DNA from: an uncultured Thermoplasmata archaeon
GTDB lineage: Archaea > Thermoplasmatota > Thermoplasmata > RBG-16-68-12
Assembly: GCA_963768855.1 (NCBI GenBank)
Contig: CAVYJM010000006.1
Span: forward strand, 736,001 to 800,000
Length of the DNA: 64,000 bases
Direction of reading: 5' to 3'
Made by a program: the position numbers and the translations under genes. Below are positions 12,094 to 54,729 of the stretch, in pieces. How positions within the stretch are numbered: position 1 is the first letter of the stretch; each line of letters begins with the position of its first letter. Below the pieces are notes generated by a model, which was given only the letters and a program-made list of their open reading frames with translations, searched no databases and had not been told where the DNA came from.

Positions 12094-12160
12094 GCTCGCG
12101 CGCGAATCATTACGTTCGCCGTCGTCCGCTCCTTCTGGAGCACAAGTTGGGGGGCATCCA

Positions 12161-37059: not shown

Positions 37060-38067
37060 TCAGGTCTCCTGCACGCGCGGATCGAGGAACATGTAGAGCA
37101 CGTCCGCGACCGCGTTGGCAATCACGACCCCAATTGTTGCGATGAGGAACACCGCGGACAGGACGGGGAAGTTCTGGTTCTGGGTCGCGGTCCACGTGAG
37201 AAGGCCGATGCCGCTGATGTTGAACACGGTCTCGATGACGATCACGCCACTTACGACCCAGCCAAAGTACAGGGCAGACGCGGTGACGACGGGCAGGCGA
37301 GCGTTCGGCAGGGCGTGCCATCGGAGTTGCTGCCTCTCGTTGAGGCCTTTTGCCGCCGCGGTCACCATGTAGTCCTCCGGGAGGACCTCCGTCAGGGAGT
37401 TCCGGAGGGTCAGGGAGAACCAAGCGACGTTCGTGATGACGAACACGAGGATCGCGGGGATGTAGTAGTAGAGCGTGGCGATCGAGTCTTGGATTGGCTC
37501 TCCGACGAGATGGAGCATGCCCGGCTGCGGGAAGAGTCGGACCTCATACGTGAATGCGAAGACGATGACGAGAGACACCCAAAACGAGGGCATGGAATAC
37601 CCGGCTAACGTGGAGAGGGTGATCGTGACATCGGTCTTCGAACCGCGTCTCCAGCCGGACACCCGGCCGAGGACCATGCCCGCCCACATCGTGACCACGG
37701 TCGCGATGCCAATGAGGGTCAGGGTGACACTCAGTGCGGGGGCAATGATCTGCACGACGGGTACGCCGCCCAGGGGCTTGGTCAGTGAGGTTCCTAGGTT
37801 CCCCTGGAGGAGATTACCCATGTAGATGACGAACCTCTGCAGGATTGGCTTGTCGAGCCCCCATTCTGCGATGAGCTGCTTTCGGATCGCGCACTCGCCG
37901 CCGCCTCCGACAGAGCTGTTGCCTCCCCCGCCGCACCCCCTCGGGGTCACGCTGAACGTGGGGTCTCCGGGCAGGACCTGAAAGATGAAGAAATTTAGGG
38001 CGGTGATGAGGAAGATTGTCACCACGATGAGGACGGCTTTCCTCAGGAGGTACCTCCGGAAGTTCGT
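37060..38067 (-). CDS. ABC transporter permease (OppB/DppB), probable ACG start
   Basis: WGLDKP, GNLGTS, MPSFW, EDYMVTAAAKGL, HALPNA and VIETVF. The conserved N-terminal RYLLRK lies upstream of the first GTG. Confidence 0.88.
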   Translation of the reverse strand, partial: TNFRRYLLRKAVLIVVTIFLITALNFFIFQVLPGDPTFSVTPRGCGGGGNSSVGGGGECAIRKQLIAEWGLDKPILQRFVIYMGNLLQGNLGTSLTKPLGGVPVVQIIAPALSVTLTLIGIATVVTMWAGMVLGRVSGWRRGSKTDVTITLSTLAGYSMPSFWVSLVIVFAFTYEVRLFPQPGMLHLVGEPIQDSIATLYYYIPAILVFVITNVAWFSLTLRNSLTEVLPEDYMVTAAAKGLNERQQLRWHALPNARLPVVTASALYFGWVVSGVIVIETVFNISGIGLLTWTATQNQNFPVLSAVFLIATIGVVIANAVADVLYMFLDPRVQET

Positions 38068-38112
38068 TCTAGCGCCTCCTCAGGGTTTCCTCATCACCTT
38101 GGTTCTCCGTTG

Positions 38113-40995
38113 CTACGGCTTCGGCGGGAGTTCGATCTTCGCCTCCGCTTCCTCCTTCTTCTTTCGCCGTCTCATCATGTACACAGCCAGGATGGCCGCA
38201 GCCACAATGACCACCACCGCGACGATCGCCCCAATGATTAGCGGGGTGAACAGCGGTTCCGGCGTGGTCGTTGGGGCAAGGGCGAAGTTGACAACCGCCG
38301 CCGAGCCCGAGGTGACCGAGATGCCCGTCTTCGACTGGGTAGCGTAGCCCGTTGCGCTGGCGTTGACCGTGTAGGTCCCGGGTTCCACGCTGATGTTGAA
38401 CTGTCCCGCGCTGTTCGTGGAGCCGGAGGTCTGCTGCCCGTTGCTCGCGGTCACATAGATCGCGGCGGCCGCAATCACGGCGTTCGTTTGCGAGTCCGTG
38501 ACGGTCCCGGTGATCCATCCGAGAGCGGGGGTCAGCGAGAAGTCCTTCGTGGTCGTCGCGTTCGCGGTTATCGTCACGGACTGCGCTGCCGACGTGACGT
38601 AGAAGTGCGCCGAAGCGACCGCATCGTACGTCCCCGGGGCCAGCGTGATATTGTATAACCCGCTGGCCGGCGTCGTTGATGAGGACGCGCCGCCCGGCAT
38701 CGTGGCGACGACCGCGTCCTTGATCGGGCTGCCAGAGGTGTCTTTCACGACTCCCGCTAGCCAACCGATGATTGGCGGCGCCTCAGTCACGTTCAGGTAC
38801 ACCGGACCTTGCGTCGTCACGCCCGTGTATCCGTCCGACACGGTCGCGCGGATCGTGTAGTTGCCCGTGCGATTCCAGTAGTGCGTACCCGTTGTGCTGC
38901 CTCCGGAGGCGGTGCAGTTCGTCACCGTCTGGTCGTGCGGGCAGTAGGTCGTGGTCCCATCGCCCCAGTCCCACGTGAAGTTCAGTGTGTCCGGGGGGAC
39001 CGTGGGGTCCGTCGACGTGGCGGTGAGGCTCAGGCTCGTGTTCACGATCCAGCTGGCGTAGGTCGGATAGTGGATCACGGGCGAGGTCGGCGGCTGGTTC
39101 TGGACGATCGCAGAGCAGGTCGGGCAGGTGATGTTGAAGAACAGCGGGTTGGCACCCCAGAACGCGTTCATCTGCATGTACGGGTCGTGGTTCCAGTCGC
39201 CCCAGTTCGTCCACACGTCCGTCCGCATCGCCCATTCCCCGTACGGATAGACGTAGATGATGTACGGGGCCATGTCGTAGTTGATCTTCTGCGCCGCGTG
39301 GACGTCTTTGATCCGCTGGTTCAGGTCGAAGTCCGCGAGCTGCGCCAGATAGTAATGGTTGTACGTCGCGTTGTTCCAGAAGTTGTCATTCCAGTCGTCC
39401 AGCGTCCAGGACGATTGCATGGACAGGATGTAGTTCGGGTCGGGGTCCGCGGACCAGTACCAAATGTACATCTCCACCGCGCCGGCATACACGTCGGCGC
39501 TCAGGATGTCCTCCGTCGTCTCGGGTTTGAGGACGATCTGGATCCCGATCCGGGCGTACTCTTGCTGGAGGTACTGCGCCGTGGCGTACTCCTCGGGGAA
39601 ATCACCCGAGGGACGGGTGGCGAGGGTGAATGCGATCTTCGTCCCGGCCTTGATCGTCTTCGTCACGTTCGGCGGATCCGTCATCTGATAGGAGCCCCAG
39701 CCCGTCTGGTAGTCCACGACGATGTCGTTCCTGGCCTCCCGGTAGCCGTTCCCGAACGTCCCGCCGCTCCACAAGTCGTATCCGGACTGATTGAGAAGCG
39801 CGTTCGCTGCCTGGATGTTGTAGGTTAGATTGTCGCCACCCGCGACCGGGTCATACCACCACTGCGGCGTGACGGGGGAGACCAGCGTGTCGCCCCGCTT
39901 GCCCTCGCCATCGTAGAAGTGCTGGATGATGTAGTCCTTGTTCGTGGACATGGCCATCGCCCGCCGGACGTTGATATCGAAGCGGGCGAGGTTGAGAGAG
40001 CTCCCCGGTTTGTCATACTGGCTGATCCCAATCTCGTTCCACTCCTGGATGACCTGCAGGCCCGACTGGACGAGGATGTTCGTCTGGCCTCGAGCGGGTT
40101 CGATCGTCGACGGCGAGAACTGAGCCAGCTGGACACCTCCGCTCAGGAGGTTCGAGGCGAGGGAGTTCGGGTCGCTGAAGAACTTGAGGTAGATGTTCTG
40201 GATGTGGATATTGTCCGACCCGCTGACGTTCGCCCCGACTGCATGGTAGGAGGGGTTCCTCGACACGTGGATGTATCCGCCCGGGCTGAGCGCCGTCAGG
40301 AACTGGTTGTAGATGTTGGAGTCGGCGATGAAGGGGCCCGTGCCGATCGGGTTCGCGTTCGCGTAGGGGATGCCCCCAGGGCAGCCGGCGGTCCCGCCCG
40401 CGCACGATGGGTCGACCGTCCTCCACTGCGCTTGCTGCACGATCGGACCGAAGATGTCCTCGCCCGCGACGAAGGGGATCTTGAAGTAGAGGATCACCTG
40501 CCACGGGTTCGTGGAGGAGATTACGGCGCCGCAGTGGGGTCGGGTCTTCGAGGTACACTGCACGACCTGGTTGAAGTACGGCTCGTATGCCCACAGGGAC
40601 GCGAGGTTCTGGCTGTCGTAGTTCCAGGTGAACGCGACGTCGGCGGCCGTGAGATCCGTGCCGTCCGACCACTTCACGCCCTGGCGCACGGTGTAGGTCC
40701 AGTTGAAACCCGCCGCATCGTGCGTGGCACTCGTGATGATGTTGGGAATGAACGTCCCTTGTCCATCGAATGCAAACGGATAGTCGTACAGTAGGCCGTA
40801 GAGGAAGTAGGATGGGTCATTGATCCCGCGGTACGGATTCAAGTAATCGATTGTCTGCAGGAAGCCGATTGTGAGGTCCGGCGCCGGTACGGCTTTCGCG
40901 GTGATCGCGAGCCCGACTGGCCCGACCACCAAGGTCTGCAGCAACAACGCGACGGTCACTAGTCCACAAATCAACGCGACGTTCAAGGACTTCGT
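38113..40995 (-). CDS. Family-5 ABC substrate-binding protein with PKD-like and two carboxypeptidase-regulatory-like domains and a C-terminal TM anchor
   Basis: YTVRQGVKWSDGTDLTAADVAFT, IGTGPF, NVRRAMAM; PKD-like FTWDWGDG; repeated G.ITG.V.D...GTYTV.AS units; TM then RRRKKK. Start ACG 40995 proposed; ATG 41061 and TTG are alternatives. Confidence 0.86.
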   Translation of the reverse strand, partial: TKSLNVALICGLVTVALLLQTLVVGPVGLAITAKAVPAPDLTIGFLQTIDYLNPYRGINDPSYFLYGLLYDYPFAFDGQGTFIPNIITSATHDAAGFNWTYTVRQGVKWSDGTDLTAADVAFTWNYDSQNLASLWAYEPYFNQVVQCTSKTRPHCGAVISSTNPWQVILYFKIPFVAGEDIFGPIVQQAQWRTVDPSCAGGTAGCPGGIPYANANPIGTGPFIADSNIYNQFLTALSPGGYIHVSRNPSYHAVGANVSGSDNIHIQNIYLKFFSDPNSLASNLLSGGVQLAQFSPSTIEPARGQTNILVQSGLQVIQEWNEIGISQYDKPGSSLNLARFDINVRRAMAMSTNKDYIIQHFYDGEGKRGDTLVSPVTPQWWYDPVAGGDNLTYNIQAANALLNQSGYDLWSGGTFGNGYREARNDIVVDYQTGWGSYQMTDPPNVTKTIKAGTKIAFTLATRPSGDFPEEYATAQYLQQEYARIGIQIVLKPETTEDILSADVYAGAVEMYIWYWSADPDPNYILSMQSSWTLDDWNDNFWNNATYNHYYLAQLADFDLNQRIKDVHAAQKINYDMAPYIIYVYPYGEWAMRTDVWTNWGDWNHDPYMQMNAFWGANPLFFNITCPTCSAIVQNQPPTSPVIHYPTYASWIVNTSLSLTATSTDPTVPPDTLNFTWDWGDGTTTYCPHDQTVTNCTASGGSTTGTHYWNRTGNYTIRATVSDGYTGVTTQGPVYLNVTEAPPIIGWLAGVVKDTSGSPIKDAVVATMPGGASSSTTPASGLYNITLAPGTYDAVASAHFYVTSAAQSVTITANATTTKDFSLTPALGWITGTVTDSQTNAVIAAAAIYVTASNGQQTSGSTNSAGQFNISVEPGTYTVNASATGYATQSKTGISVTSGSAAVVNFALAPTTTPEPLFTPLIIGAIVAVVVIVAAAILAVYMMRRRKKKEEAEAKIELPPKP

Positions 40996-41071
40996 CCGAA
41001 ACCCTCCCGTCCGCGCCGGTCCTTGCGGCCCGACGTCTTTAAGTGATTGACGGACCCCCATAAAAGGGTAC

Positions 41072-41081
41072 TGTCATGACA
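41072..41081. promoter_or_regulatory. Perfect palindrome TGTCATGACA next to the substrate-binding protein promoter
   Basis: 10-bp self-complementary site immediately upstream (minus strand) of a CCCTTTTAT box. Confidence 0.5.
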
Positions 41082-41188
41082 CTAGTACTCCATGCGTGCA
41101 AGAGCGTCCTTGCGAGCTTTTTGTCTGCGTCGATAGTACGCTTTCGTGCGACACAACCGGACGTATCCGAGGGCCATCCCTTGAGGGA

Positions 41189-41273
41189 TGCGTGGGCCAG
41201 GATTCGAACCTGGGAACCCCTGCGGGAAGGGATCTTGAGTCCCTCGCCTTTGACCTGGCTTGGCTACCCACGC
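41189..41273 (-). tRNA. tRNA-Leu(CAA)
   Basis: GCGTGGGTAGCCAAGCCAGGTCAAAGGCG-AGGGA CT CAA GA TCCCT-long variable arm-CCAGGTTCGAATCCTGG-CCCACGCA. Confidence 0.95.
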
Positions 41274-41355
41274 ACGGTGCGCGGAGCGTGGCCTTCTCCT
41301 ATAATCTTTGTCGCGGGCCGGCGGGGCCCCGAAGCGTTTTTGTCGTGGCGCCGCC

Positions 41356-41754
41356 ATGGCCCGCCGGGGTCGCATCGTGGTCTCGTACTTCTCGAAAGAG
41401 TTCTTCGACGCCCTGGCGAGCGCGTTGAACGCAGATGCCGAGTGGATGAAGAAGTCGTCGAATTCGACCTTCAAGGCCGTCATCACCCTCACGGACCGTT
41501 CGAAGTCGTACCTGCTCGACGTCGTGAGCGGACGGGTGGCGGTGAGCGAGGTCGCGCCGGACGTGCCCGCCGACTTCAAGTTCGAGGGGCCGTACGACGC
41601 CTGGGTCATCTTGGGCAAGGGCGAGAAGGACTTCCAGTCGCTGGTGATGGGAGGCAAGATCAAGTTCCGGGGATCGATGCCCAAGGTGATGGGCATGATG
41701 GGCCAGTGGAACCGGCTCATCAAGGTGGCTCAGGAGCTCCCGAAGGAGTTCTAA
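41356..41754 (+). CDS. SCP2 sterol/lipid-carrier domain protein (paralogue 2)
   Basis: ADFKFEGPYDAW...LVMGGKIKFRGSM...LPKEF. Confidence 0.8.
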   Translation: MARRGRIVVSYFSKEFFDALASALNADAEWMKKSSNSTFKAVITLTDRSKSYLLDVVSGRVAVSEVAPDVPADFKFEGPYDAWVILGKGEKDFQSLVMGGKIKFRGSMPKVMGMMGQWNRLIKVAQELPKEF

Positions 41755-41919
41755 TCGGAGCTCACGGTCGCTCCGGTGCTGAACACCTTCACGCGCTCAA
41801 CCGGATCGATTCGAAAAACGGTTCCGGCTTGAACCTTCGCCCGTCGGCGACGAGCCGCTCAAACGATTAAATAGCGAGGGACCCATTCGCATCCCAGATC
41901 GGGGAGACCGGGGGAGACC

Positions 41920-43074
41920 ATGGTCGATTTTGAGCTCACGGAAGAGCAGAAGCTCATGCAGAAGACCGCGCACGAGTTCGCCGAGAAGGAGATGCGGCCG
42001 ATCGCCCTGGAGTATGACAAGAAGGCAGTCATGCCGTGGGACATCGTGAAGAAGGCGCATGCGCTCGGCTTGGACACGGCCTTCATCCCCGAAGAGTACG
42101 GCGGCGGGGGCATCGCGTCGACGCTCACGCACTGCATCGTGATGGAGGAACTGAACTGGGGATGTGCGGGGATCGCCACGGGGCTCCTCGGCGCGGGACT
42201 CGCGTATCTCCCGATCATCCACATGGGGACCGAGGATCAGAAGAAGCGCTTCCTCGTCCGCTTCACCGGGCCCGAGCCGCGCCTCGGCGCCCTCTGCCTG
42301 ACCGAGCCCGACGCCGGCTCCGACAACCAGAACATCTCCACCACCGCGGTAAAGGAAGGGAACGAGTGGGTCCTGAACGGTGTCAAGCGGTTCATCACGA
42401 ACGGGGGCATCGCCGATGTCCACGTCGTCTTCGCCACGATTGACAAGAGCCTCCGGTTCCTCGGGGTCCGTGGGTTCGTCGTGGAGCACGACACCCCCGG
42501 GCTCAAAGAGGGCAAGGTCGAAGACAAGATGGGGGTGCGCGCGAGCCACACCTCGGAGGTCCTCCTGGACAACTGCCGCATCCCGGGCGACAACATGCTG
42601 GGCTCCGAGGACAGCTCCGCCTTCTACGGCGCGATGAAAACGCTCGAGTCGTCGCGCCCGCTGGTCGCCGCCGGCGCCGTCGGGATCGCCCGGGCGGCGT
42701 ACGAGTACGCGCTGGACTACGCTCGGAAGCGCAAGCAGTTCGGCGGGCCGATCGCGAAGAAGCAGGCGATCGCCTTCATGCTCGCGGACATGAAGACCAA
42801 GGTGGATGCGGCGCGCATGCTCGTCTACCGGGCCGCCTGGATGCTCGACCAGGGGATGCCCATGAACAAGGAGGCGAGCGAAGCGAAGCTATTCGCCGCG
42901 GACATCGCCATGGACGTGACCACGGACGCCGTGCAGATCCTGGGCGGCGCGGGCTACATGAAGGACGAGCCCGTCGAAAAGTGGATGCGCGACGCGAAGG
43001 TCTTCCAAATCTGGGAAGGCACGTCGCAGATTCAGCGGCTCATCATCTCCCGGGACGAGATCGGCGAGCTGTGA
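41920..43074 (+). CDS. Acyl-CoA dehydrogenase
   Basis: LCLTEPDAGSD, LNGVKRFITNGG, KMGVRAS, YARKRKQFG, QILGGAGY and QIWEGTSQIQR. Confidence 0.93.
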   Translation: MVDFELTEEQKLMQKTAHEFAEKEMRPIALEYDKKAVMPWDIVKKAHALGLDTAFIPEEYGGGGIASTLTHCIVMEELNWGCAGIATGLLGAGLAYLPIIHMGTEDQKKRFLVRFTGPEPRLGALCLTEPDAGSDNQNISTTAVKEGNEWVLNGVKRFITNGGIADVHVVFATIDKSLRFLGVRGFVVEHDTPGLKEGKVEDKMGVRASHTSEVLLDNCRIPGDNMLGSEDSSAFYGAMKTLESSRPLVAAGAVGIARAAYEYALDYARKRKQFGGPIAKKQAIAFMLADMKTKVDAARMLVYRAAWMLDQGMPMNKEASEAKLFAADIAMDVTTDAVQILGGAGYMKDEPVEKWMRDAKVFQIWEGTSQIQRLIISRDEIGEL

Positions 43075-43116
43075 CTGCCCGCTAGGCTTAAGGCCGTCCG
43101 CGGCCGATGCGGACCC

Positions 43117-43728
43117 ATGGCCGTGCCCGCCCTCTCTGTTGCCGCCCCGCTTCCGGAACCGCTGCGTCTCCCGCGCGGAAGTGTCCACGGCCTGCTCGTG
43201 ATCGTCCTCATGGGCACGTTCGTGTATCTCCTCAACCGCGACCGCGCCGCGCCCCAGGTCCTGGTGAACGCCGTGGTCGTCTGCCTCGCGTTCTACTTCG
43301 GGAGTCACGGGACGATTCCGGCCGGCCTTGGAGCCTCCGGGGGCACGTCGAGCCCCGGGAGGCGCCCCCGGATCGTCCGAGGTCTCCTCCTCGCGGGGTT
43401 CGCCGGGCTCGCGGGATGGTTCCTGTACTCGGGCGTGCCGTTCGACCAGCTTCCCTCCCCGCTGGTCGAGATATGGGAGGTGCTGGGCGGCTATCTCCTG
43501 GGACTCACGCTCTCCTGGGTGTTCCATCGGCGGGCCCATGAGACGGACGCGCGACGCCGCCTGGCCACCGTGTTCCGCGACCTGAGCGCCCTGGGCGCGC
43601 TCGGGTTCACACTGTTCGCGTGCTACGCGATGGCCACGGGCCTCGTGAGCGCCTTCGGTCAGACGGTCGAGCAGGGGCTCTCCCTCGTCATCACGTACTA
43701 CTTCGGTTCGCGGGTCATCGCCCACTGA
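43117..43728 (+). CDS. Hypothetical multi-pass membrane protein with a duplicated YFGS-ending unit
   Basis: PLRLPRGSVHGLL...AFYFGSH and ...TYYFGSR; about 6 TM. Confidence 0.7.
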   Translation: MAVPALSVAAPLPEPLRLPRGSVHGLLVIVLMGTFVYLLNRDRAAPQVLVNAVVVCLAFYFGSHGTIPAGLGASGGTSSPGRRPRIVRGLLLAGFAGLAGWFLYSGVPFDQLPSPLVEIWEVLGGYLLGLTLSWVFHRRAHETDARRRLATVFRDLSALGALGFTLFACYAMATGLVSAFGQTVEQGLSLVITYYFGSRVIAH

Positions 43729-43738
43729 GGAGGGCCGC

Positions 43739-44650
43739 CTACTCGGTGATCTCCGCGACCCCTTTCGCGGGGACGCGGAACAGAAGGGGCAGCAGGCTCA
43801 TCCACGCGGTTTCGAAGATGAGAGCCGTGATGGCGGGCAGGCTTGCCAGGGGCCCGAAGACGTTGAAGGCCAAGACCACCGTCAGGCCGAGATTCTTGAA
43901 CCCCGCGAAGGTGACGGCGGCGATTCGCGTTTCTCGAGGAGTCCGGAGGAGCACCGTGACCGCGAGGATCATCAAGCCGAGACCAATCGTACGCGCGAAG
44001 GCCAGGAGGGACAGGCCGGCGGCCAGGCCCGGCTCGCTCAGGAGGGTGGCGCGGGTGGACCCCGCGATGGCCATGACGAGGACGAAGAAGGAGACGCATA
44101 CCGCGACGGGCCGAACCTCATGGACAGGCTTCCAACCCCGCAGCGGCCTCGAGAGGATGGTCGGGACGCCGATCAGCAGCAGCGTCTGGACCGCAAGGGT
44201 CTCCACGGGCACCGCCTCTCCCAGGAACAGCAGACTCAGTCCGGGCACCATGGCGAGTCCCGTGAAGTAGAGGACCGACTCCGAGATCAGGGCGCGCCGG
44301 ACATTCCCCCGGAGGAGTGACGTGATGGGGACCACGGCGACCGCCGGCGGCACGGCCCCCATGAGAACCCACCCGCTGCGGACCTGGGGGTCTGGGGTGA
44401 GGAGGCCGATGGCGATGACGAGCGACCCAAGGACTCCGTACGTCATCGCGGACGAGAGCGCGAGGCCGCGGAGCTCCGCACCCGGAGAGATGCCGCGGAA
44501 GGAGATCTCCGTGAGGGAGAACGCCATGGCGACGATCAGGGTGGCCTGCTGGATGATCCCGGAGAGGTTTGCGGGGAAGCCCCCCGTCAAGAAGCCGACG
44601 ACGAGGCCCGCGCCGACCATGAACGGGAAGTTTCTCCAGAACCGGAACAC
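43739..44650 (-). CDS. Bile acid:sodium symporter-like (BASS/ACR3 superfamily) transporter
   Basis: About 9-10 TM; GAVPPAVAVVP and FAGFKNLGL motifs. Confidence 0.7.
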   Translation of the reverse strand: MFRFWRNFPFMVGAGLVVGFLTGGFPANLSGIIQQATLIVAMAFSLTEISFRGISPGAELRGLALSSAMTYGVLGSLVIAIGLLTPDPQVRSGWVLMGAVPPAVAVVPITSLLRGNVRRALISESVLYFTGLAMVPGLSLLFLGEAVPVETLAVQTLLLIGVPTILSRPLRGWKPVHEVRPVAVCVSFFVLVMAIAGSTRATLLSEPGLAAGLSLLAFARTIGLGLMILAVTVLLRTPRETRIAAVTFAGFKNLGLTVVLAFNVFGPLASLPAITALIFETAWMSLLPLLFRVPAKGVAEITE

Positions 44651-44706
44651 GCGGCCACGACCGATGCCGGGCGCTTAAACCTTGACGTCGCCTCGAGCCT
44701 CGCGGC

Positions 44707-45555
44707 TCACAAGCTCACGAGGGCCGCGCCGACGATCGCGAGGCCCACGGCAATCTTCTGCGCACGGGTCATCTCTTCCTCCATCCAGAACCGGCGGAAC
44801 AGAATGGCCACGATCGGGTACGCGGTCGTGAGCGGCACGACGACGGCGAGAGGTCCCAGCCCGATCGCGAGGAAGATCGTGATGCCCGCGGCCGCGAAGA
44901 GGATGAGGGTGGGCTGCGCGGCCCGGATGTCCGCCCGGGCGACGGGCCCGCGCTTGCGGGATTCGCGCCATCCGAAGGCGAGCATCATGGGGGTGGAGAC
45001 GAGGACGTAGATTCCCGCGTTTCCTGCGAATCCCATCGAGGCGATCGCGAGCTTCTCGAAGACGCCCCAAGCTCCCCAGAGAAGGACTGCCACGACCATC
45101 GGAGCGAGCCAGGCGCGGCTGACCGACTTCTTGTCGGACTCTTCGACCCATCCGAGGAGGAACGCCGCGCCCACGAGGAAAGCGATGCTCACGGCCTGGA
45201 GGGGGAGAAGGGTCGCGCCGAGGCCGACGACGGCGGCCACCACCGTGACGACCGGGTACGCGGCGGTGAACCCGCTGACCACCGACGCCTCGCCGGATTC
45301 CATGGCCACGAACCAGAGCATGTTGCCGATCGTCCCGCAGAGGGCCGAGGCCACACCGAAGGCGATGCCCGTGGCCGTCAGGGAACCGCCACCGCTCCCG
45401 AGCAGGAACCAGCCCGCGTAGATCGGGACGCTATAGAGAGAATACAGGGCGAGCATCCGGCCTGGACCCAGCCGGACCGTCGGCTCTTTGGAGAGGCCCT
45501 CGCCCAGGCCGTAGAGCACGACCGTGAGCAGGGCGCATGCGAGCCAGAGCTCCAT
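44707..45555 (-). CDS. EamA/DMT-family transporter
   Basis: Two repeats of about 5 TM with GEASVVSGFTAAYPVVT and LAVVVPLTTAYP. Confidence 0.85.
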   Translation of the reverse strand: MELWLACALLTVVLYGLGEGLSKEPTVRLGPGRMLALYSLYSVPIYAGWFLLGSGGGSLTATGIAFGVASALCGTIGNMLWFVAMESGEASVVSGFTAAYPVVTVVAAVVGLGATLLPLQAVSIAFLVGAAFLLGWVEESDKKSVSRAWLAPMVVAVLLWGAWGVFEKLAIASMGFAGNAGIYVLVSTPMMLAFGWRESRKRGPVARADIRAAQPTLILFAAAGITIFLAIGLGPLAVVVPLTTAYPIVAILFRRFWMEEEMTRAQKIAVGLAIVGAALVSL

Positions 45556-45759
45556 CTCGCCACTCTGCCGTTCGTCTGTCTTTGTCGGTGTCTTGTTCCA
45601 TGTCTGCAGACTCCGCGCGGAGACGCGCTCCGCATCCGAGTTGCGGGTGTCTCTTAGGCCGAGGTTTTCTTAAAGGTGCCGGTAAAAAAGTACGTCGCGA
45701 AAGATGAAAGTGGTAGGCGGGAGACGGATCTCCCGCCATCTTTGCACTACCTTCCCGAC

Positions 45760-46608
45760 TCACGGGGACATGCCGTACGTCTGCCGCGGAGGCGCGACGC
45801 CGAACATCGGGAGGCCCTGGAAATCCTCAGCGACTTTCCCCGTCGTGGCAAATCGGTAGAGCGCTGCGATCAGAATCGAACTCGCAGCGGACGAGATCAG
45901 GCCGAGGATGATCCAGTACACGACGGCGATCACGAGCCCCACGATCAGACCGACGATCCCCCCGATCACCGCTCCGAGAGCGATCGGCAGGATTCCTGCG
46001 AGGCCCGCGAGGACGAAAATGGCCCCCATACTGAAACCGCCCACGATCGTCTCGCCCCATGTCGCCTTGAAGATGTGGGCGCTCCGCTTCACGGAGGCCC
46101 AGGGACCGAGCTTCTCGTAGACTAGGACCGGCACCACGAAGTACGTTGCCAGGCTCCACGCGACGCCCACGAGCCCGATCACGATCCGTCCCAGGATTCC
46201 GCTCCGCTGCTGGATGGCGCGGAGGATCATCGCCACGGTCCCCGCGAAGAGGGCCCACAGGAAGATCCGCCCCACGTTCTCGCGGGCGATGCGCAGGCCG
46301 TCCCCGAGGGTCGGGTTCCCCCCGTTGAGGCGGATCGTCGCGGCGCCGATCACCGCGGCATTGAAGAAGATCGCCACGAAGAACGCGAAGATGTAATACA
46401 CCGCGAGCACGGGGATGAGGAGCCACGACGAGGGTCCGTTGAGGAACGCTTCGAACCCGACCAGGGCGAACATCCCGCCGAGGAACCCGCCGAGGATCAG
46501 GAGGAGGGCCAGCCCCGAGAGGAGCGGGAAGATGAGGAGCTCTTTGTCCTTTCGCAGCACACGCAAACTGGTTTTCGTCAGTTGCCAGCCGAGTCCGATT
46601 CGTCCCAT
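45760..46608 (-). CDS. DUF6159-like membrane protein
   Basis: GWQLTKTSLRVLRKDKELLIFPLLS and YFVVPVLVYE...SVKRS..IFKATWGE. Confidence 0.7.
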   Translation of the reverse strand: MGRIGLGWQLTKTSLRVLRKDKELLIFPLLSGLALLLILGGFLGGMFALVGFEAFLNGPSSWLLIPVLAVYYIFAFFVAIFFNAAVIGAATIRLNGGNPTLGDGLRIARENVGRIFLWALFAGTVAMILRAIQQRSGILGRIVIGLVGVAWSLATYFVVPVLVYEKLGPWASVKRSAHIFKATWGETIVGGFSMGAIFVLAGLAGILPIALGAVIGGIVGLIVGLVIAVVYWIILGLISSAASSILIAALYRFATTGKVAEDFQGLPMFGVAPPRQTYGMSP

Positions 46609-46684
46609 GTCCCTCTCTCCTCCGTTGTGTTGGGCGTTCGAAGAGCCCAGGGTCTCCTAAGACCTTCGACGGCATTCCCAGCTG

Positions 46685-48131
46685 CTACGTGGCGGCGAGC
46701 ACCTTCGTCGCGGGTCGCTTCAGGGCCCGCTTCACGAACGCGTTGAGCTTGGCCTCGACCGCGGGCTCCAGGGGTGGATCGACGACGTGCTCCCGGAGGA
46801 CCGCCTCGGCGCGACGCGCGGCCTTCTCCGCTACGTCCATTCCCTCCCGCGAGATGCGGGATCCCCGCAGGAACGTGTCCGGGAGGAAGTGTTCCTGGCG
46901 GAAGTGGGAGAGGGTGTGCGGGTGGGCGAGGTAGGATCCGCGGAAGCCCGCGGACTCGATCACCTCGGTCGCCAGGGTTTCCTCCGAGACCTCGATCCCC
47001 GTGAGGATGCGCCGCACGGATCCCGCGAGGTCTCCGTCCAACACGAGCTTCGCGTAGCTGGCGCTGAGGCTCGATTCGAGGCTCCCAGCGACGTCGTAAA
47101 TGAAGTCGAACCCGGCGAGGCCGGAGAGCAGGAGCGTCGTGGCCGATTCGGCCCCGGCCTGATAGTCCGGGGAGAGGGCCTCCGTGTTCCCTCCGGTCCC
47201 GCGGGAGGGGATGCCGTAGTACCGCGCAAGTTGCGCGGCGCCCAGGGAGATGAGGCCCGCCTCGGGGGCTCCGAGCGCGACCGCTCCCGTCCGCATGTCC
47301 AGAATCGTCGAGACGCTCCCGTAGAGGACCGGAGCCCCGGGATGGACGCACTGGGCGACAGCGATCGACGCGAGGACTTCGGCGTTCTGCTGGACGAGGA
47401 CGCCCGCCAGGGTGGACGGCGCGGTGCCGCCCGCCATGCATTCCGGCGGCATGATGCACGGCTGTCCCGCCCGCGCGAATGCGACGAGCCCTTCCGTCGT
47501 CTCCTTGGCCAGGGTCAGCGGGCTCACAGGGTTCGTGAAGCCCAGGAGGAGCGGTCGTGCCTCGAGCTCGTCGCGGCCTCCCGCGACGATGGCCGCCATG
47601 TCGATCGTGTCCTGCGCGTATTGCCGGCCCCAGTTGTAGCCGTCCAGGGACTTCGTGCTGAACTTGAATCCGTACAGGACCTCGTAGAGGTGGACCGCCT
47701 CGTTCGGGACGTCCCGCGGCCACACGACCCAGGACGCATGGTCCAGGAACGGCGAGGCGTCGACGAGGCGATAGAAGGATTCAACGTCCTTCAGCGTCGG
47801 CGGGCGCACGTCCCCGTGTCCGTTCTCCACCTGGACGGCCGTGCCCATGCTGCTGAAGTACGTGTTCCCCTCCCCGAAGGCGAGGACGTGATCCGGCGCG
47901 CGTCCGTAGAGGCGGAAGCGGCTCGGCGCCAGGCAGGAGGAGCTGCTTCAGGGCGGTCTCCGGGATCCGGACGACCTGGCTCACGTCGTCGTAGGATGCA
48001 CCCGCGGTCTCGAGGGCCTTTGCGGCCTCCGGGTCCAGGATCCGCACTCCGGTCCGCTCGAGTACGCGCACCGTGGCTGCGTGGATCTTCTGCAATTCCC
48101 CGCGCGTGAAGGGTTCCAGACGAATCGTCAA
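46685..48131 (-). pseudogene. mttB: MttB-superfamily methyltransferase (copy 2) split by a single +1 frameshift near 47935
   Basis: N-terminal LTIRLEPFTRGELQKIHAATVRVLERTG (TTG 48131) is in one frame. The remainder LAPSRFRLYGRAP...NPVSPL...YYGIPSRGTGGNTEA is in the next frame. Confidence 0.85.
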
Positions 48132-48229
48132 GCTCCCCGTCCCCCCAACCGACCGCTCCCGATGGGACGAACCATCGTCACGTCTCCCCGGGACCCCGTG
48201 GATCCCTGGGCAAACTTTCGCATGGACCC

Positions 48230-48248
48230 ATGGAACTAATAGTTCCAT
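48230..48248. promoter_or_regulatory. 19-bp perfect inverted repeat ATGGAACTA-A-TAGTTCCAT (candidate operator)
   Basis: Lies in the divergent intergenic region between mttB copy 2 and the activator operon. Confidence 0.7.
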
Positions 48249-48391
48249 CGTAATGACTGCATGATTGCCCCCTTTCCCGGATTCCTCAGGGGGAGTGTTC
48301 CGGGCAGATCGAGCGGACGCGTCCGCAGTTCGGGCGTGAAGGCTATGAGGGCCCGTCTCTCTTCCCCCGGCATGCGAGGTGGGGACCGACC

Positions 48392-48919
48392 GTGGACGCG
48401 GCCGACCGGGAAGTGACGCAGAGGGTCGGGGCGTTGCGCGGGGTCCTCCGCGTCGTGGCCTTGGCTCCCGAGGATCGCGAGGGCCTGATCCGGCACGGCA
48501 CCGCGGCGGCCGCCGAGAACCAGGGCGTGACGGAGGTCCTGTCCCGCCAGCGCGTTCTCTGCATCTTCAAAGACCCCTCGTTCCGTCCGCCGCCGGAGCC
48601 GACGCTCCTCCTGGTCGACGAGGCAGGGAAGGTCTTGGGTCGCGAACTCCTCCCCGGGGACGCGCCTCCCGCGGACCGTCGCGTCGCGCATCTGGGGAAG
48701 GATTTCGTGCTCTTCACCGGGGAGCGGCCGGAAGGGCACTACCGCTTCCTCCTCCCCCCGGTACGGTTCCCCGAGCTCGAATCGATCCCCCGCGTCGACC
48801 GCGTGGTCTCCGCGAGCCCCGACTCGCCGCAGGACGACTACCTACGTGCACGCTTCGACGTGCCGCTGGGACACCGGTACGCCTCCGTCCTCATCGGATA
48901 CGATGTGCGGAATCCTTAG
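48392..48919 (+). CDS. Hypothetical protein (175 aa) upstream of the corrinoid activator
   Basis: Clean ORF with SD-like GAGGTGG; distinctive FRPPPEPT, LGKDFV and SASPD motifs; function unknown. Confidence 0.75.
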   Translation: MDAADREVTQRVGALRGVLRVVALAPEDREGLIRHGTAAAAENQGVTEVLSRQRVLCIFKDPSFRPPPEPTLLLVDEAGKVLGRELLPGDAPPADRRVAHLGKDFVLFTGERPEGHYRFLLPPVRFPELESIPRVDRVVSASPDSPQDDYLRARFDVPLGHRYASVLIGYDVRNP

Positions 48920-48946
48920 GTAGCGTCACGCGCCTCCCTTCTCCGC

Positions 48947-50788
48947 TTGGCGCAGCCCGTCGCAATCTTCCAGCCGGAGGGACGCCGCACCCGCGTGGGC
49001 GTGCGGGAAGACCTCCTGGACGCCGCCCGCCGATGCGGGGTCGGCCTCGAGGATCTCTGCGCGGGGCGAGGTACGTGCGGGAAGTGCAAGGTGCTCGTGC
49101 GCCGCGGCTCGGAGCTCCTCCGGCCCCCCGGCCCCTTCGAGGCCCACCTCACCAAGGAGGACCGCCAGCGCGGCGTCCGTCTTGCGTGCCAGTGCCGCCC
49201 CGCGGGCGAGGGGATCATCGTCCTCGAGGTTCCCCCGGAGTCGCAGCGGGGATGGCAGCGCCTCCAGACCTCCGGGCTCATGCCCGCCCACGGACTGGCC
49301 CCGGACCTCCGCAGGGTGCGGGCGCCCCGGATCCTCACGCCGGCGCGAATCCGGTCGTCGGGATGGCGGGTCGCACCCGGAGCGCTCGACGCCCTGGTCC
49401 CTCACGAAAAGCGGCGACCGACCGCTCGGAGCCTCGTCGTCTGGCGGAAGGAGGTCCTCGCGTGCCAGTCCCCGTCGGACCGGATCCTCGGGATGGCCTT
49501 CGACATCGGCTCGACCAAGATCGCCGGCTTCCTGATGGACTTGGAGACGGGCGACCCCTTGGAGACCGTCTCCGCCCCGAACCCGCAGATGGTCCACGGC
49601 GAGGACATCATGTCTCGGCTGGCGTTCGCCCGCGGCGGGCCCGCACAGGAAACCCTCCTCCACGAGGAGATCCTCGGGACCCTGAACGATCTGATTCGAA
49701 AGGGGTGTGCACTGGCCCACCAGCCCGTGGAACGGGTCTTCGAGGTCGTGGCCGTCGGGAACACGGCGATGCACCACCTCTTCCTCGGCCTCCCGACGGA
49801 CGGCCTCTCGCGCGCCCCGTACACTCCCTCCACGAAGCGGGAGGAGACGCGGCGCGCCGGCGCCTTCGGGCTTCACGTCGCTCGTGCCGCTGCGGTCGTC
49901 GCGCCCCCGGTCGTCGCAGCCTTCGTGGGGAGCGACCTGGTCGCGGGGGTCCTCGCTACCCGCCTCCATCGTTCCTCGCGGTTGCGGGTGTTCATCGACG
50001 TCGGCACGAACACGGAGATCTGTGCCGGGGGCCGAGGGCGGCTCGTCGCGTGCTCGACGCCCTCGGGTCCTGCCTTCGAGGGCGCGCACATCCGGTTCGG
50101 CATGCGGGCCGCCGATGGCGCGGTGGAGCGCGTCGCGATTGAGCCGGACACGTTCCATGTGGACTACCGGGTCATCGGCCGCATGAAGCCTCGAGGGCTG
50201 TGCGGATCGGCACTCCTCGACCTCCTCGCCGATCTCTTCCGTACCGGGGCGATCGACTCTGCGGGGCGGCTCCAGCGGCGGGTCGCAGCGCGCCGGATCC
50301 GGCGTCTCGGAGACCAGCTCGCGTTCCTTGTGGTCGACGCGGACGAGACCTCGATCGGACAGGACCTCCTCCTGACTCAGGACGACATCGGCCAGCTCCA
50401 GCTTGCCAAGGCGGCGATCCACGCCGGCATCGATCTGCTCCTGGACACGCTCCACCGTCCCGTGTCCGACATCCAGACCCTCTACCTGGCGGGCGCCTTC
50501 GGCAGCTACCTCGCGCCCGAGAGTGCCCGGGCGGTCGGCATGCTCCCGGACTTGCCGCTCGAGCGCGTCCAGTTCGTCGGGAACACGGCCGGGTCGGGTG
50601 CGCGTCTGGCCCTCCTCTCCATCCGGGAGCGCAAGGCGATGCGGGATATCGCGAGGCGCATCCGTCACAATCCTCTCGCTGGCGACCCGCGTTTCCCCCG
50701 GGAATTCGCCGCCTCCCTGTTCCTCCCGCACCGGGACGCCACGCGGTTCCCGAGCGTCACGCCGCGGCGGCGCGCGCCTGCTCGATGA
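48947..50788 (+). CDS. ASKHA-type reductive activator of corrinoid proteins (RACo-like, N-terminal [2Fe-2S])
   Basis: CAGRGTCGKC...LACQC ferredoxin; FDIGSTK, HGEDIMSR, DVGTNTE, GPAFEG, GLCGS, LAGAFGSY and VGNTA. Confidence 0.9.
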   Translation: MAQPVAIFQPEGRRTRVGVREDLLDAARRCGVGLEDLCAGRGTCGKCKVLVRRGSELLRPPGPFEAHLTKEDRQRGVRLACQCRPAGEGIIVLEVPPESQRGWQRLQTSGLMPAHGLAPDLRRVRAPRILTPARIRSSGWRVAPGALDALVPHEKRRPTARSLVVWRKEVLACQSPSDRILGMAFDIGSTKIAGFLMDLETGDPLETVSAPNPQMVHGEDIMSRLAFARGGPAQETLLHEEILGTLNDLIRKGCALAHQPVERVFEVVAVGNTAMHHLFLGLPTDGLSRAPYTPSTKREETRRAGAFGLHVARAAAVVAPPVVAAFVGSDLVAGVLATRLHRSSRLRVFIDVGTNTEICAGGRGRLVACSTPSGPAFEGAHIRFGMRAADGAVERVAIEPDTFHVDYRVIGRMKPRGLCGSALLDLLADLFRTGAIDSAGRLQRRVAARRIRRLGDQLAFLVVDADETSIGQDLLLTQDDIGQLQLAKAAIHAGIDLLLDTLHRPVSDIQTLYLAGAFGSYLAPESARAVGMLPDLPLERVQFVGNTAGSGARLALLSIRERKAMRDIARRIRHNPLAGDPRFPREFAASLFLPHRDATRFPSVTPRRRAPAR

Positions 50789-52205
50789 GCTCGTCGAGCC
50801 TGCGGACCGTGTCGGCGGGCAACGGGTTGGGCGGGGCGTGGGTCAGGGCCTCCCGCACCTTGTCCCGGGCCCGGTCCTCCATGCTCCGGCTCCCGCTCGC
50901 GACCCAGAGGTCGTGGCTCCGGCGGTCCACGAGCCGCGGCTGAAAGTGTTCGGTCCGCAGGTGCTCCATCGTGTGCCGCTGCCCCAGGAACATGCCGCCG
51001 ATGCCCACCTTCTCGATCACGTCGAGCGCGAGATGATCCGCATCGACCATGATTCCGTCCGCGATGCGGCGGATCATGCTCACCATCTCGTCGTCGATGA
51101 AGAGCTGCTCCAGCCACAACGTCCGCGCGTCCTCCAGGAGTCCGATCCCGCAGATCAGGTCCGCGCCCCCGAGCACGAGCGACAGTCCGCTGGCAAACTG
51201 CTCCAGGGCGGCCTGCGTTCCGGGTACGGACGCCGTCGCGTCGAACCCGCCGCAGAGGCTTGGCACTCCATAGGCATGGGCGATCTGCGTCACGGCGGCG
51301 CCCGTGAGTCCATGCTCGGGCGACCCGCCGGCACGCGTGGTCGTCTTCATGTCGAGCGGGGCGATCCCCGTTCCCCAGATCACCGGGCACCCGGGATTCG
51401 CGAGCTGGCACATCGTGAGCCCGCTGAGGAATTCCATCGCCGCGACGACGACGGACCCCGCGAGCGTGACCGGCCCCGAGGTCCCCGGCCCCGGCATCGT
51501 GAAGATCGCCACGGGCACCCCGGCCTCCCCGAAGACGAACGCCGTGTCCATGTTCCCGCCATCGTGCTGGAGGGGGGCGATCGACGTGTGGACGGAGGAG
51601 ATGATGGGTCGCTTCCGGAGCGCTTCCCTCCCGCCGGTGACGGCTGCGGCCATGTCGACGAGCCGCCGTCCGTTCTCCGGCGTGACCGCCGTCGCGAACT
51701 GGACGTGCTTGTCCGTGTTCATCAATGAAACCTTGAGGTCGACGTAGGTCCGGATTCCGGGGGGCACATCTTGGGAGGTGACCATGGGCCAGAAGACATG
51801 GAGATTCTCGAGCGCGTTGGACACGATTGCCGTCTTGGCGAGGTCGGCCGCGGTCGAGGGGCGCCGCTCCCCCGTCTCGAAATCGATCGCGAGCGGTCCG
51901 TTCCCGTCGTTGCAGACGTGGACGTGCTGGAGATCGAGGTCCGCATCCTGGCTCGGACTCCGTCCGAACAGCGTGATGCGCTTCGCGGTGCGATTGAGCG
52001 CATCCTCGACCAGTGACGTCGGGATCCGCGCTACGTGGGTGGCCTCGTCCACGTGCGCGCCCGCCTCTGCAAGTAGCCGCCGTCCCCGGGCCGTCCCGAT
52101 CTTGACGCCGACCTTCTCGAGCTCGAGCAGGGCCGCTTGGTGGATCCGCCCGACGTCCTCTTTCGAGAGGACGGGATAGGGACGACGGATTGCGATCCCG
52201 CTCAT
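50757..52205 (-). CDS. mttB: MttB-superfamily methyltransferase, non-pyrrolysine (copy 3)
   Basis: LSKEDVGRIHQAALLELEKVGV, IAPL, GTSGPVTLAGSVV, GSPE and AYGVPSLCGGFDATA. Confidence 0.9.
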   Translation of the reverse strand: MSGIAIRRPYPVLSKEDVGRIHQAALLELEKVGVKIGTARGRRLLAEAGAHVDEATHVARIPTSLVEDALNRTAKRITLFGRSPSQDADLDLQHVHVCNDGNGPLAIDFETGERRPSTAADLAKTAIVSNALENLHVFWPMVTSQDVPPGIRTYVDLKVSLMNTDKHVQFATAVTPENGRRLVDMAAAVTGGREALRKRPIISSVHTSIAPLQHDGGNMDTAFVFGEAGVPVAIFTMPGPGTSGPVTLAGSVVVAAMEFLSGLTMCQLANPGCPVIWGTGIAPLDMKTTTRAGGSPEHGLTGAAVTQIAHAYGVPSLCGGFDATASVPGTQAALEQFASGLSLVLGGADLICGIGLLEDARTLWLEQLFIDDEMVSMIRRIADGIMVDADHLALDVIEKVGIGGMFLGQRHTMEHLRTEHFQPRLVDRRSHDLWVASGSRSMEDRARDKVREALTHAPPNPLPADTVRRLDELIEQARAAAA

Positions 52206-52849
52206 GAGTGCTTGCCGACGAGCTTCTGCGCCAGCCGCACCGCGCCGGACGCGTCGCCGGCCGTGCCGTCCGAGCCGATCTCCTTCGCGTACTGTTCCGT
52301 GACCGGCGCACCGCCGACGAGGAACTTCTCGCGCGAGCGGACGCCCTTCGTCTGCGCCGCGGCGAGCAGTTCCTTCATCCTCGGCATGGACGTCGTCATG
52401 AGGGCGGACACCCCGACGATCTCCGCGTTGATCTCCTTCGCCTTGGCGAGGATCGCGTCCGCGGGCTGGTTCACGCCCAGGTCGACGACGTCGAACCCGT
52501 TCGCCGTGAGCATCGTCCCGACGAGGTTCTTCCCGATCTCGTGAATGTCATCCTGCACGGTCGCGAGGACGACCTTGTGCGTCTCGCGCGCGGGCCCTCC
52601 CTTCGGCACGCGCGGTTCGAGGATCGCGACCCCGGTCCGCATCGTCTCCGCGGCCATGACGAGCTCGGGCAGGAAGCACTCGCCCGCACCGAACTTCTGG
52701 CCGACGTCGCGGATTCCAGCTCCCAACCCTTTCTCGATTCCGGCGAGCGGATCCATGCCGTGATCCAGAGCCTCCTTGGCCAGGGCGGGCATGCCTTCCA
52801 TGTCGTATTCCATGACGGCTTTCTTGAGTCGCGCTACGTAGTCCTCCGT
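52202..52849 (-). CDS. Corrinoid (B12-binding) methyl-carrier protein (MttC/MtbC-like), probable ACG start
   Basis: FLPELVMAAE cap; DIHEIGKNLV (DxHxxG), DLGV, SALMTTS, VGGAPVT and GTAGDA. Confidence 0.92.
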   Translation of the reverse strand, partial: TEDYVARLKKAVMEYDMEGMPALAKEALDHGMDPLAGIEKGLGAGIRDVGQKFGAGECFLPELVMAAETMRTGVAILEPRVPKGGPARETHKVVLATVQDDIHEIGKNLVGTMLTANGFDVVDLGVNQPADAILAKAKEINAEIVGVSALMTTSMPRMKELLAAAQTKGVRSREKFLVGGAPVTEQYAKEIGSDGTAGDASGAVRLAQKLVGKHS

Positions 52850-52977
52850 GGTGTTCACCTCCGCCGTGCGGTGAACCGGGACGTGCCGTGGGGTGGAAAA
52901 CCTTTTGGCTCTTACCTTGTGCCGCAAACCTTGACATACTCCTTCCGGTTTCCCGCTGCACCTCGGGAGGCGGTGGA

Positions 52978-54534
52978 ATCGCATCCTACGATGCTGTCGT
53001 CATCGGCGCAGGCCACAACGGTCTCGTCGCGGCGAACTACCTCGCGAAAGCGGGTCTTCGCGTCGCAGTGGTGGAGCGCTCGGACCGGGTGGGCGGGGCC
53101 AGTGTCACGGACGAAATCGCCCCGGGATTCAGGGTGAGCGCGGCCGCCTACGTGTCGGGCCTGTTCCGCCCGCAGATCATCGAGGACCTCGAGCTGGCGA
53201 AGTACGGCCTGCGTCAGATCGCCTTCGACCCGCAGGCCTTCTGCCCATTTCCGGATGGCCGCTCGCTCCTCCTGTGGAGTGACGTCGAGCGCACGTGCAA
53301 GGAAGTCGCCCGGTTCTCGAAGAAGGATGCGGAAGGGTACCGCCGCTACGCGGCCTTCTGGGACTCGTTCTACGAGCTGATCGAGCCGATGCTCCTGTCG
53401 CCTCCCGTCCCGGTGGCCGATCTCGTGGACCTGATGCGGGGGGCAGAGGCGGAGGAGCTCATGCGGCGCCTCCTGTTCTACAGCGCCGAGGAACTCCTCG
53501 ACGAGTACTTCGAGTCGCCGGAGGTGAAGGCCGCCCTGGCGAACCAGAGCATCATCGGGCATTTCGCGGGGCCGTCCTCCCCATGCACCGCATTCACGCT
53601 GAGCCACAACCTCCTGGGGAACATCAACGGCGTCGTGGGCGCATGGGGCTTCACGGTGGGAGGCATGGGTGGGATCCCGGACGCTCTTGCCAAGGCCGCG
53701 CGGGCGCGCGGCGTGGAGATTCTCCTGAACGCCCCGGTCGGACGGGTCGTCACCGCGAACGGGCGAACGACCGGGGTGAGGCTCGAGGACGGTCGTGTCC
53801 TCGAATCGAAAGCGGTCCTCTCCAGTGCCGATCCGAAACGGACCTTCCTGGGAATGGTCGAGCCCGACGCGCTTCCATCCGAATTCCTCCGGGCGGTCTC
53901 CCGTATCAAGATCCACGGAGCCGCGATGAAGGTCAACTGCGCATTGTCGGAACTTCCGGAGTGGACGGCGCGGCCCGGTGGTCCCGGTCCGCACCACCGT
54001 GGGTCGACGTACCTCTGTCCCTCCATCGAGTATGTGGAGGCGGCGTTCGCGGACGCCAAGCGCGGAATCCCATCCCGAGCTCCGTGGATGGAGGTCGTCA
54101 CCCAGAGCGTCCTGGATCCGAGCGTCGCCCCTCCGGGGAAGCACACCCTCTCCGTCTACGTGCAGTACACGCCGTACCATCTCGCATCGAACTCCTGGGA
54201 CGACATTCGGGAAGCGTACGCGGACACGGTCCTGGAGACCCTCGCGCAGTACGCTCCGAACGTCCCGGACGCGGTCCTCGCCCGCGAAGTCCTCACGCCT
54301 CTCGATCTGGAGCGCCGGTTCGGGCTCACGGAGGCGCATCAGTCGCACGGAGAGATGGGCCCGGACCAGTTCTTCTCCTTCCGGCCCGTGCCCGGCTGGT
54401 CCAACTACCGCATGCCGATCCGGGGCCTCTACCTCTGCGGCGCGGGAACGCACCCCGGCGGCGGAGTGATGGGCGCACCCGGATACAACGGCGCGCAGGC
54501 CGTGATCGAGGATTGGGCCAGCCTCAAGGCGTGA
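52978..54534 (+). CDS. COG1233 phytoene-desaturase-like FAD oxidoreductase, probable ATC start
   Basis: YDAVVIGAGHNGLVAANYLA, VGG, TPLDLE and GLYLCGAGTHPGGGVMGAPG. Confidence 0.88.
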   Translation: MASYDAVVIGAGHNGLVAANYLAKAGLRVAVVERSDRVGGASVTDEIAPGFRVSAAAYVSGLFRPQIIEDLELAKYGLRQIAFDPQAFCPFPDGRSLLLWSDVERTCKEVARFSKKDAEGYRRYAAFWDSFYELIEPMLLSPPVPVADLVDLMRGAEAEELMRRLLFYSAEELLDEYFESPEVKAALANQSIIGHFAGPSSPCTAFTLSHNLLGNINGVVGAWGFTVGGMGGIPDALAKAARARGVEILLNAPVGRVVTANGRTTGVRLEDGRVLESKAVLSSADPKRTFLGMVEPDALPSEFLRAVSRIKIHGAAMKVNCALSELPEWTARPGGPGPHHRGSTYLCPSIEYVEAAFADAKRGIPSRAPWMEVVTQSVLDPSVAPPGKHTLSVYVQYTPYHLASNSWDDIREAYADTVLETLAQYAPNVPDAVLAREVLTPLDLERRFGLTEAHQSHGEMGPDQFFSFRPVPGWSNYRMPIRGLYLCGAGTHPGGGVMGAPGYNGAQAVIEDWASLKA

Positions 54535-54677: not shown

Positions 54678-54729
54678 CCTCGATGTCGCCCAGTGGCTCG
54701 GAGGCTCGAATTGACAGGAGGTGAAGGAC

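Follow-up and report, generated by a model that had tools for sequence, protein, structure and literature searches.

Near-cognate start codons behind Shine-Dalgarno motifs point to relaxed start-codon choice in a soil lineage of Thermoplasmata

The window and its genome

The window considered here is a stretch of 64,000 nucleotides (nt) from an uncultured Thermoplasmata archaeon (genome G000, contig C6, G000:C6:736001-800000), in which several genes carry ACG, ATC or CTG at the position of the start codon, mostly behind a clear Shine-Dalgarno (SD) motif. The sequence belongs to a metagenome-assembled genome (MAG) of 24 contigs and 2.87 Mb, with a GC content of 66%, a completeness of 93.6% and a contamination of 7.7%. 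A full-length archaeal 16S rRNA is present in the MAG, and its 3' end, GGAUCACCUCCU, is complementary to the SD motifs ahead of the near-cognate starts. These motifs lie 5-9 nt upstream of the codon, except that the CTG at 12161 is preceded by only GGGGGG-N6 (N with a number gives the nucleotides between motif and codon). An earlier reading of the window, referred to below as the original prediction, named five such sites, in the genes for an oppB-type permease, an oppA-type solute-binding protein, a corrinoid protein and a COG1233-like oxidoreductase and in the gene at 12161, and all five are found in the sequence at the coordinates and spacings it gave. For comparison, orthologous loci were taken from other, independently assembled MAGs of the genus, and their start regions were aligned by anchoring on the conserved protein.

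Start columns of oppB and oppA

Two neighboring genes for an oligopeptide-type transporter have ACG in the start column:

37060-38067, minus strand: oppB-type ABC permease gene; candidate start ACG 38067-38065; SD GAGGAGG 38081-38075; in-frame TGA 38082-38080
38113-40995, minus strand: oppA-type solute-binding protein gene; candidate start ACG 40995-40993; SD GGAGG 41007-41003

The ACG of oppB stands 7 nt behind GAGGAGG and four codons after the in-frame TGA. The first ATG, GTG or TTG after this stop is the GTG at 38025, and a protein starting there would lose NFRRYLLRKAVLI and with it the conserved NFRRYLLRK segment, much as the original prediction had described for RYLLRK. The Pfam BPD_transp_1_N match starts at residue 5 of the ACG-started protein, and the onset of coding, estimated by codon log-odds, lands exactly on 38067. 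At this column ACG is found in 10 loci (53-79% protein identity), and six more distant orthologues have ATG (four), GTG (one) or TTG (one). In-frame stops lie 1-16 codons upstream in the ACG loci, one of which has TAG abutting the ACG, and 9 of the 10 have no canonical codon between the stop and the ACG.

The start column of oppA, at GGAGG-N7-ACG, has ACG in 14 loci, ATG in three and ATT in four. A canonical ATG lies in frame upstream at 41061 in the window. The corresponding ATG is out of frame in two relatives (G013 and G007), and four loci (L055, L058, L059 and L070) have an upstream in-frame stop with no canonical codon before the ACG. The ATG at 41061 is also overlapped by a conserved TATA-like motif, TTTTAT (41065-41060), which is probably the TATA box.

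The divergent corrinoid and COG1233 genes

A second pair of genes is arranged divergently and is followed by a site of the same geometry with a canonical start:

52202-52849, minus strand: corrinoid (B12-binding) protein gene; likelier start ACG 52849-52847; SD GGAGGTGA 52862-52855; alternative in-frame GTG 52858
52895-52908, no strand: A/T-rich palindrome CCAAAAGGTTTTCC, between the two divergent genes and conserved in relatives
52978-54534, plus strand: COG1233-like FAD-dependent oxidoreductase gene; candidate start ATC 52978-52980; SD GGAGG 52966-52970
54717-54732, plus strand: canonical comparison site; GGAGGTGA 54717-54724, 5 nt, ATG 54730

In the COG1233 gene, 7 nt separate GGAGG from ATC, and the coding onset by codon log-odds again falls exactly on the proposed start, at 52978. 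The ATC is present in five genomes, namely the own genome and the relatives G013, G053, G009 and G023, and ATG occupies the same column in G007. An in-frame GTG lies 30 codons upstream, at 52888; three of the four ATC relatives have an upstream in-frame TGA and no canonical codon before the GxGxxG loop. The palindrome CCAAAAGGTTTTCC could be a shared bidirectional TATA region for the two divergent genes. With transcription starting about 25 nt from it on either side, GTG 52888 would lie outside the COG1233 mRNA.

The corrinoid gene is more ambiguous. Five nt separate GGAGGTGA from its ACG, and the SD motif itself includes a GTG in frame, which precedes the ACG by three codons. The ACG is found in five genomes; in 10 orthologues and paralogues its column has ATG, GTG or TTG. 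The comparison geometry GGAGGTGA-N5-ATG at 54730, to which the original prediction had likened this site, is indeed present, with ATG at the start column in four genomes and GTG in one. That gene, too, carries a GTG in frame within the SD motif, yet its N5 codon stays ATG or GTG in all relatives, which favors the N5 codon as the start of the corrinoid gene as well. On this comparison, the ACG appears the likelier start, and GTG 52858 is a less favored but serious candidate.

The own genome alone thus leaves the starts of oppA, the corrinoid gene and the COG1233 gene undecided, since all three have in-frame canonical codons upstream. A usable canonical alternative is lacking at oppB in the own genome and at oppA, COG1233 and CTG 12161 in at least one relative; the corrinoid gene has one. 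Sister genomes had been proposed as a check, and in them the same codon or ATG, GTG or TTG does stand in the start column, although the GTG of the corrinoid gene is conserved too. As a result, three of the four ACG and ATC cases first put forward (oppB, oppA and COG1233) stand, and the fourth is left between ACG and GTG.

Other starts in the window

Two further genes of the window belong to the same class, the second of them a sixth case beyond the five named at the outset:

12161-13174, plus strand: membrane or secreted protein gene (no Pfam family); candidate start CTG 12161-12163; G-run GGGGGG 12149-12154
1014-3098, minus strand: DnaA-type ATPase/DUF835 protein gene; candidate start ACG 3098-3096; SD GAGGA 3109-3105; TATA-like CTATTTA 3145-3139

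The CTG at 12161 is kept in five genomes, and in one relative (G009) an in-frame TGA lies five codons upstream. The ACG at 3098, spaced as GAGGA-N6, is found in all six genomes compared. Its upstream in-frame ATG at 3125 loses the frame in G023 and, at a distance of about 18 nt, was judged too near the TATA-like CTATTTA to be a likely start; it is probably outside the transcript.

For a census of the window, 57 genes were called by codon log-odds, and each start was aligned with the syntenic DNA of five relatives. No start call was made for the genes at 15899-16165 and 35060-36127. Among the roughly 49 resolvable genes, about 30 start with ATG, 10 with GTG and two with TTG, and five or six (10-12%) have non-canonical starts: oppB, oppA, the 3098 gene, COG1233 and CTG 12161, with the corrinoid gene undecided. 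Some starts that are canonical in the own genome are changed in relatives, from TTG to CTG in two genomes and from GTG to CTG in one. The start of oppC, ATG in the own genome, is ACG in two relatives, and another gene varies between ATG, ATY and ACG. In the small gene at 15899-16165 (minus strand), which lies behind GGAGGTGA, the N7 codon varies among relatives (GTG, GTT, ACG, GTG, GCG).

Genome-wide and order-wide occurrence

A strict screen of the whole genome asked for a coding-like stretch of at least six codons ahead of the first canonical codon in frame, and 78 of the 2504 called genes (3.1%) pass it. When SD-led candidates close to the coding onset are counted, ACG leads, observed 10 times against 2.5 expected (4 times its usage), followed by ATC and CTG. 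The list includes NuoL, cytochrome b and amine oxidase. At the start column of NuoL, ACG is found in the own genome and in G005, with ATG, ATG and GTG elsewhere. Chorismate synthase (AroC) has CTG in the own genome and GTG, GTG, ATG and ATG elsewhere. In NDK, surveyed across the whole order, the roughly 38 genomes of the genus include five with CTG and one with ACG at the start column, and CTG, TTG and GTG alternate among genomes that are about 90% identical. In another family of the order (f7), NDK has CTG-ACG in two genomes where sister genomes have CTG-ATG. These alignments confirm the near-cognate starts of NuoL, AroC and NDK, and in them start codons turn over fast between close relatives.

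The genes with near-cognate starts are unrelated, among them transporters, NDK, AroC, NuoL, an FAD oxidoreductase and a DnaA-like ATPase. Such starts are spread over many independent genomes of the genus and extend to at least one further family of the order. The pattern is more than chance, since independent MAGs share these codons at identical alignment columns and other orthologues have ATG, GTG or TTG there.

Initiation machinery

The initiator tRNA gene is located at G000:C11:139916-140050 (plus strand; locus L181). Two introns, the first after position 37 and the second in the T-loop, kept it from being detected by either ARAGORN or the Rfam tRNA model. The tRNA has the anticodon CAU, the three G:C stem pairs (GGG/CCC) and an A1:U72 pair, and it is the sole A1:U72 tRNA found. 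An altered initiator tRNA was therefore rejected as a cause, the CAU anticodon and the G:C stem pairs being present, and the tRNA-Thr(CGU) is an ordinary elongator.

Two genes for aIF1 (SUI1) were found, at G000:C11:50630-50965 (plus strand) and G000:C7:100472-100770 (minus strand). One of them follows rpl29 and starts with ATG; the second has only TTG or ATC behind GGAGG. In Pyrococcus aIF1, the loop-1 residues R31, Y32 and K34 have been shown to matter (PMC6237735). The loop-1 motif TRRYGK is intact in both paralogues, and loss of aIF1 or a change in its loop 1 was accordingly discarded as a cause. Among the 79 genomes of the order, the second copy is found only in the own genus, in at least 15 of its 37 genomes. 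Duplication of aIF1 was also ruled out as a cause, since single-copy genomes and family f7 have ACG starts as well.

Proposed relaxation of start-codon choice and its alternatives

It is proposed that the near-cognate codons are genuine starts and that start-codon choice at SD-led genes is relaxed across the lineage, a reading to which we give a probability of about 0.8 from the comparative sequence evidence. Relaxed selection had been suggested in the original prediction, and the orthologue columns of many genes and genomes support it. Pfam matches to N-terminal domains also agree with the near-cognate starts. In this archaeon and its genus, about one gene in ten very probably starts at ACG, CTG or ATC behind an SD motif; the non-canonical share is estimated at about 10% of the window genes and, by the strict screen, at least 2-3% genome-wide. 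A broader claim is also likely, if held slightly less firmly: that the whole soil Thermoplasmata lineage, possibly spanning several families, has a systematically lowered initiation stringency, with ACG, which is no accepted prokaryotic start, joining CUG and AUY as a regular initiation codon and serving a few percent of genes. Behind it would stand a change at the aIF1, aIF2 or ribosome proofreading step; C-to-U editing of the mRNA would be a less likely source.

We infer initiation by initiator methionyl-tRNA (Met-tRNAi) at the near-cognate codons, and a reason for the tolerance of the machinery, along the following lines. Strong SD pairing 5-8 nt upstream would anchor and pre-position the small ribosomal subunit, the ordinary Met-tRNAi (CAU) would be accepted despite a single mismatch to the codon (ACG, CUG, AUC or AUU), and the protein would begin with Met. 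Leaderless genes such as PGK retain ATG. GC-biased mutation would supply changes from ATG to ACG and from TTG to CTG, and such changes would be only weakly selected against. The codons seen are mostly GC-enriching neighbors of canonical starts, of these same two kinds. Since near-cognate codons swap with ATG, GTG and TTG between close species, the data suggest that start-codon identity is weakly selected under GC mutation pressure, rather than set by gene-specific control.

Several points weigh against this proposal. No molecular cause was found in the initiator tRNA, in loop 1 of aIF1 or in the aIF1 copy number; the original prediction had directed attention to aIF1 and the initiator tRNA, of which the tRNA proved ordinary and aIF1 intact in loop 1. 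The upstream canonical codons of oppA (ATG 41061), COG1233 (GTG 52888) and the 3098 gene (ATG 3125) are excluded via relatives and promoter inference only, and the in-frame GTG of the corrinoid gene, lying within GGAGGTGA, accompanies its ACG in all five genomes. With the same script, the strict screen passes 0.75% of genes in a relative of 49% GC and 2.5% in a relative of 64% GC (family f7); this control is confounded by GC content. A simple SD-anchored codon census of the whole genome (GGAGG and extended motifs), also put forward at the outset, revealed no near-cognate enrichment, because internal GGAGG and GAGGTG sites dominate the count; even ATG is only weakly enriched. Likewise, counts of the GGAGGTGA-N4-5 pattern in the genus (from 79 order genomes counted: ACG 155, ATG 198, ACC 117) fail to separate ACG from ACC, the ratio of the two being close to that of codon usage.

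Ordinary starts might simply have been missed, with translation running from the nearest canonical codon, either as an upstream extension or as a downstream shortening, and ACG, ATC and CTG read as Thr, Ile and Leu. In-frame canonical codons do exist in the own genome for oppA (ATG 41061), COG1233 (GTG 52888), the corrinoid gene (GTG 52858) and the 3098 gene (ATG 3125). However, oppB and nine ACG-bearing orthologues have no such codon, and those upstream of oppA, COG1233 and the 3098 gene fall out of frame or behind a stop in relatives. Downstream starts would remove parts of conserved N-terminal domains, and the near-cognate column is the ATG, GTG or TTG column of other orthologues. For most sites, the relatives exclude missed canonical starts, and this account is considered unlikely as a whole. 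Weak starts could instead have been selected gene by gene to lower or couple expression, for example, of transporters and methyltransferase partners, possibly on top of a permissive machinery. The long retention of ACG in oppA and oppB and of ATC in COG1233, across species at 50-80% protein identity, fits such control, as does the second aIF1 gene with only TTG or ATC behind GGAGG, which is reminiscent of infC. But the affected genes are functionally unrelated and include the housekeeping genes NDK, AroC and NuoL, and close relatives differ at the same gene, as in NDK (CTG, TTG or GTG at about 90% genome identity). Dampening, the second option of the original prediction, may act on some genes but is not needed to account for the data. 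The wide range of gene classes weighs against it as a general explanation, and in that role it is quite improbable.

Editing of mRNA from C to U, in the style of plant organelles, would turn ACG into AUG and CUG into UUG before translation, and ACG and CTG, the two commonest non-canonical codons, each become canonical after one such change. The ATC of COG1233 and the ATT of oppA orthologues would not be repaired in this way, whereas single-mismatch tolerance covers all codon types at once. No editing factor was seen, none having been searched for, and mRNA C-to-U editing of such kind is not known in archaea; it is regarded as very improbable. Base-calling or assembly errors, or decaying pseudogenes, could be suspected from the 7.7% contamination of the MAG, some duplicated contigs and a frameshift in a neighboring MttB-family gene. 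Since many MAGs assembled independently share both the codons and their positions, with frames intact and conserved, sequencing error is effectively refuted by cross-genome conservation, and this whole class of explanation has a negligible share.

Comparison with known systems

The literature that was searched for ACG starts in archaea yielded no report. In eukaryotes and viruses, near-cognate initiation at ACG and CUG is established, for example, in adeno-associated virus VP2 and Sendai virus C', and eIF1 sets its stringency (PMC4705826). The likeness to the relaxed starts proposed here lies in the codons, which are ACG, CUG and AUY and not AAG or AGG, in the toleration of a single Met-tRNAi mismatch, and in the eIF1/eIF1A/eIF2-type core that archaea share with eukaryotes. 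However, eukaryotic near-cognate initiation involves scanning, is rare and usually yields minor or regulatory isoforms, whereas here the codon is SD-positioned and would be the sole start of about one gene in ten.

Bacteria use rare starts such as AUU in infC and pcnB, and CUG, AUC and AUA are listed in NCBI table 11; to our knowledge, ACG is absent from the starts of that table. These bacterial starts are likewise SD-led codons with one mismatch, and there, too, the gene of a proofreading factor (here the second aIF1) itself lacks AUG or GUG. But they concern a handful of genes per genome, whereas here non-canonical starts are far more frequent and ACG is the commonest of them. In plant organelles, C-to-U RNA editing turns ACG into an AUG start, which resembles the present case in having a genomic ACG where a start is needed, but the ATC and ATT starts are unexplained by editing. 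Within the archaea, ribosome profiling of Haloferax volcanii showed GUG and UUG starts and placed about 30% of alternative initiation peaks at near-cognate codons, and these were set aside as possible false positives (PMC7261190). The peaks in Haloferax volcanii are not main starts of conserved genes, whereas here comparative genomics points to main starts.

The start-codon rule seems looser here than its textbook version. Gene finders that allow only ATG, GTG and TTG would truncate or miss several percent of the proteins in such genomes, stripping signal peptides, first transmembrane helices and nucleotide-binding loops, and the truncation of N-termini would distort metabolic and localization predictions for a widespread soil group. 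Archaea combine eukaryote-type aIF1, aIF1A and aIF2 with bacterial-type SD anchoring, and a lineage that routinely accepts ACG, CUG and AUY would offer a natural experiment for learning what sets the stringency of proofreading and how GC mutation pressure reshapes start codons.

Neighboring genes and assembly

Two other genes of the window were considered as non-canonical starts and dropped. PGK (3288-3340, plus strand) is a leaderless ATG gene with a conserved TATA-like box, CTATTAT, about 27 nt before its ATG; the box is retained in G007 even though the frame shifts there. The CTG at 47932 falls at a frameshift within an MttB-family (trimethylamine methyltransferase-like) gene (46685-48248, minus strand), which is split by a 1-nt insertion near 47932-47935 and forms one continuous frame in four relatives, with an ATG-containing coding sequence there. 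A frameshift, a pseudogene or faulty assembly could account for the split, which is no pyrrolysine site. Elsewhere in the MAG, a tRNA(CAU) resembling tRNA-Ile, with a T-loop intron, is present in identical copies at G000:C6:1074410 and G000:C16:1434, and contigs C20 and C24 have an identical GTPase gene start in common, which suggests duplicated contigs in the assembly.

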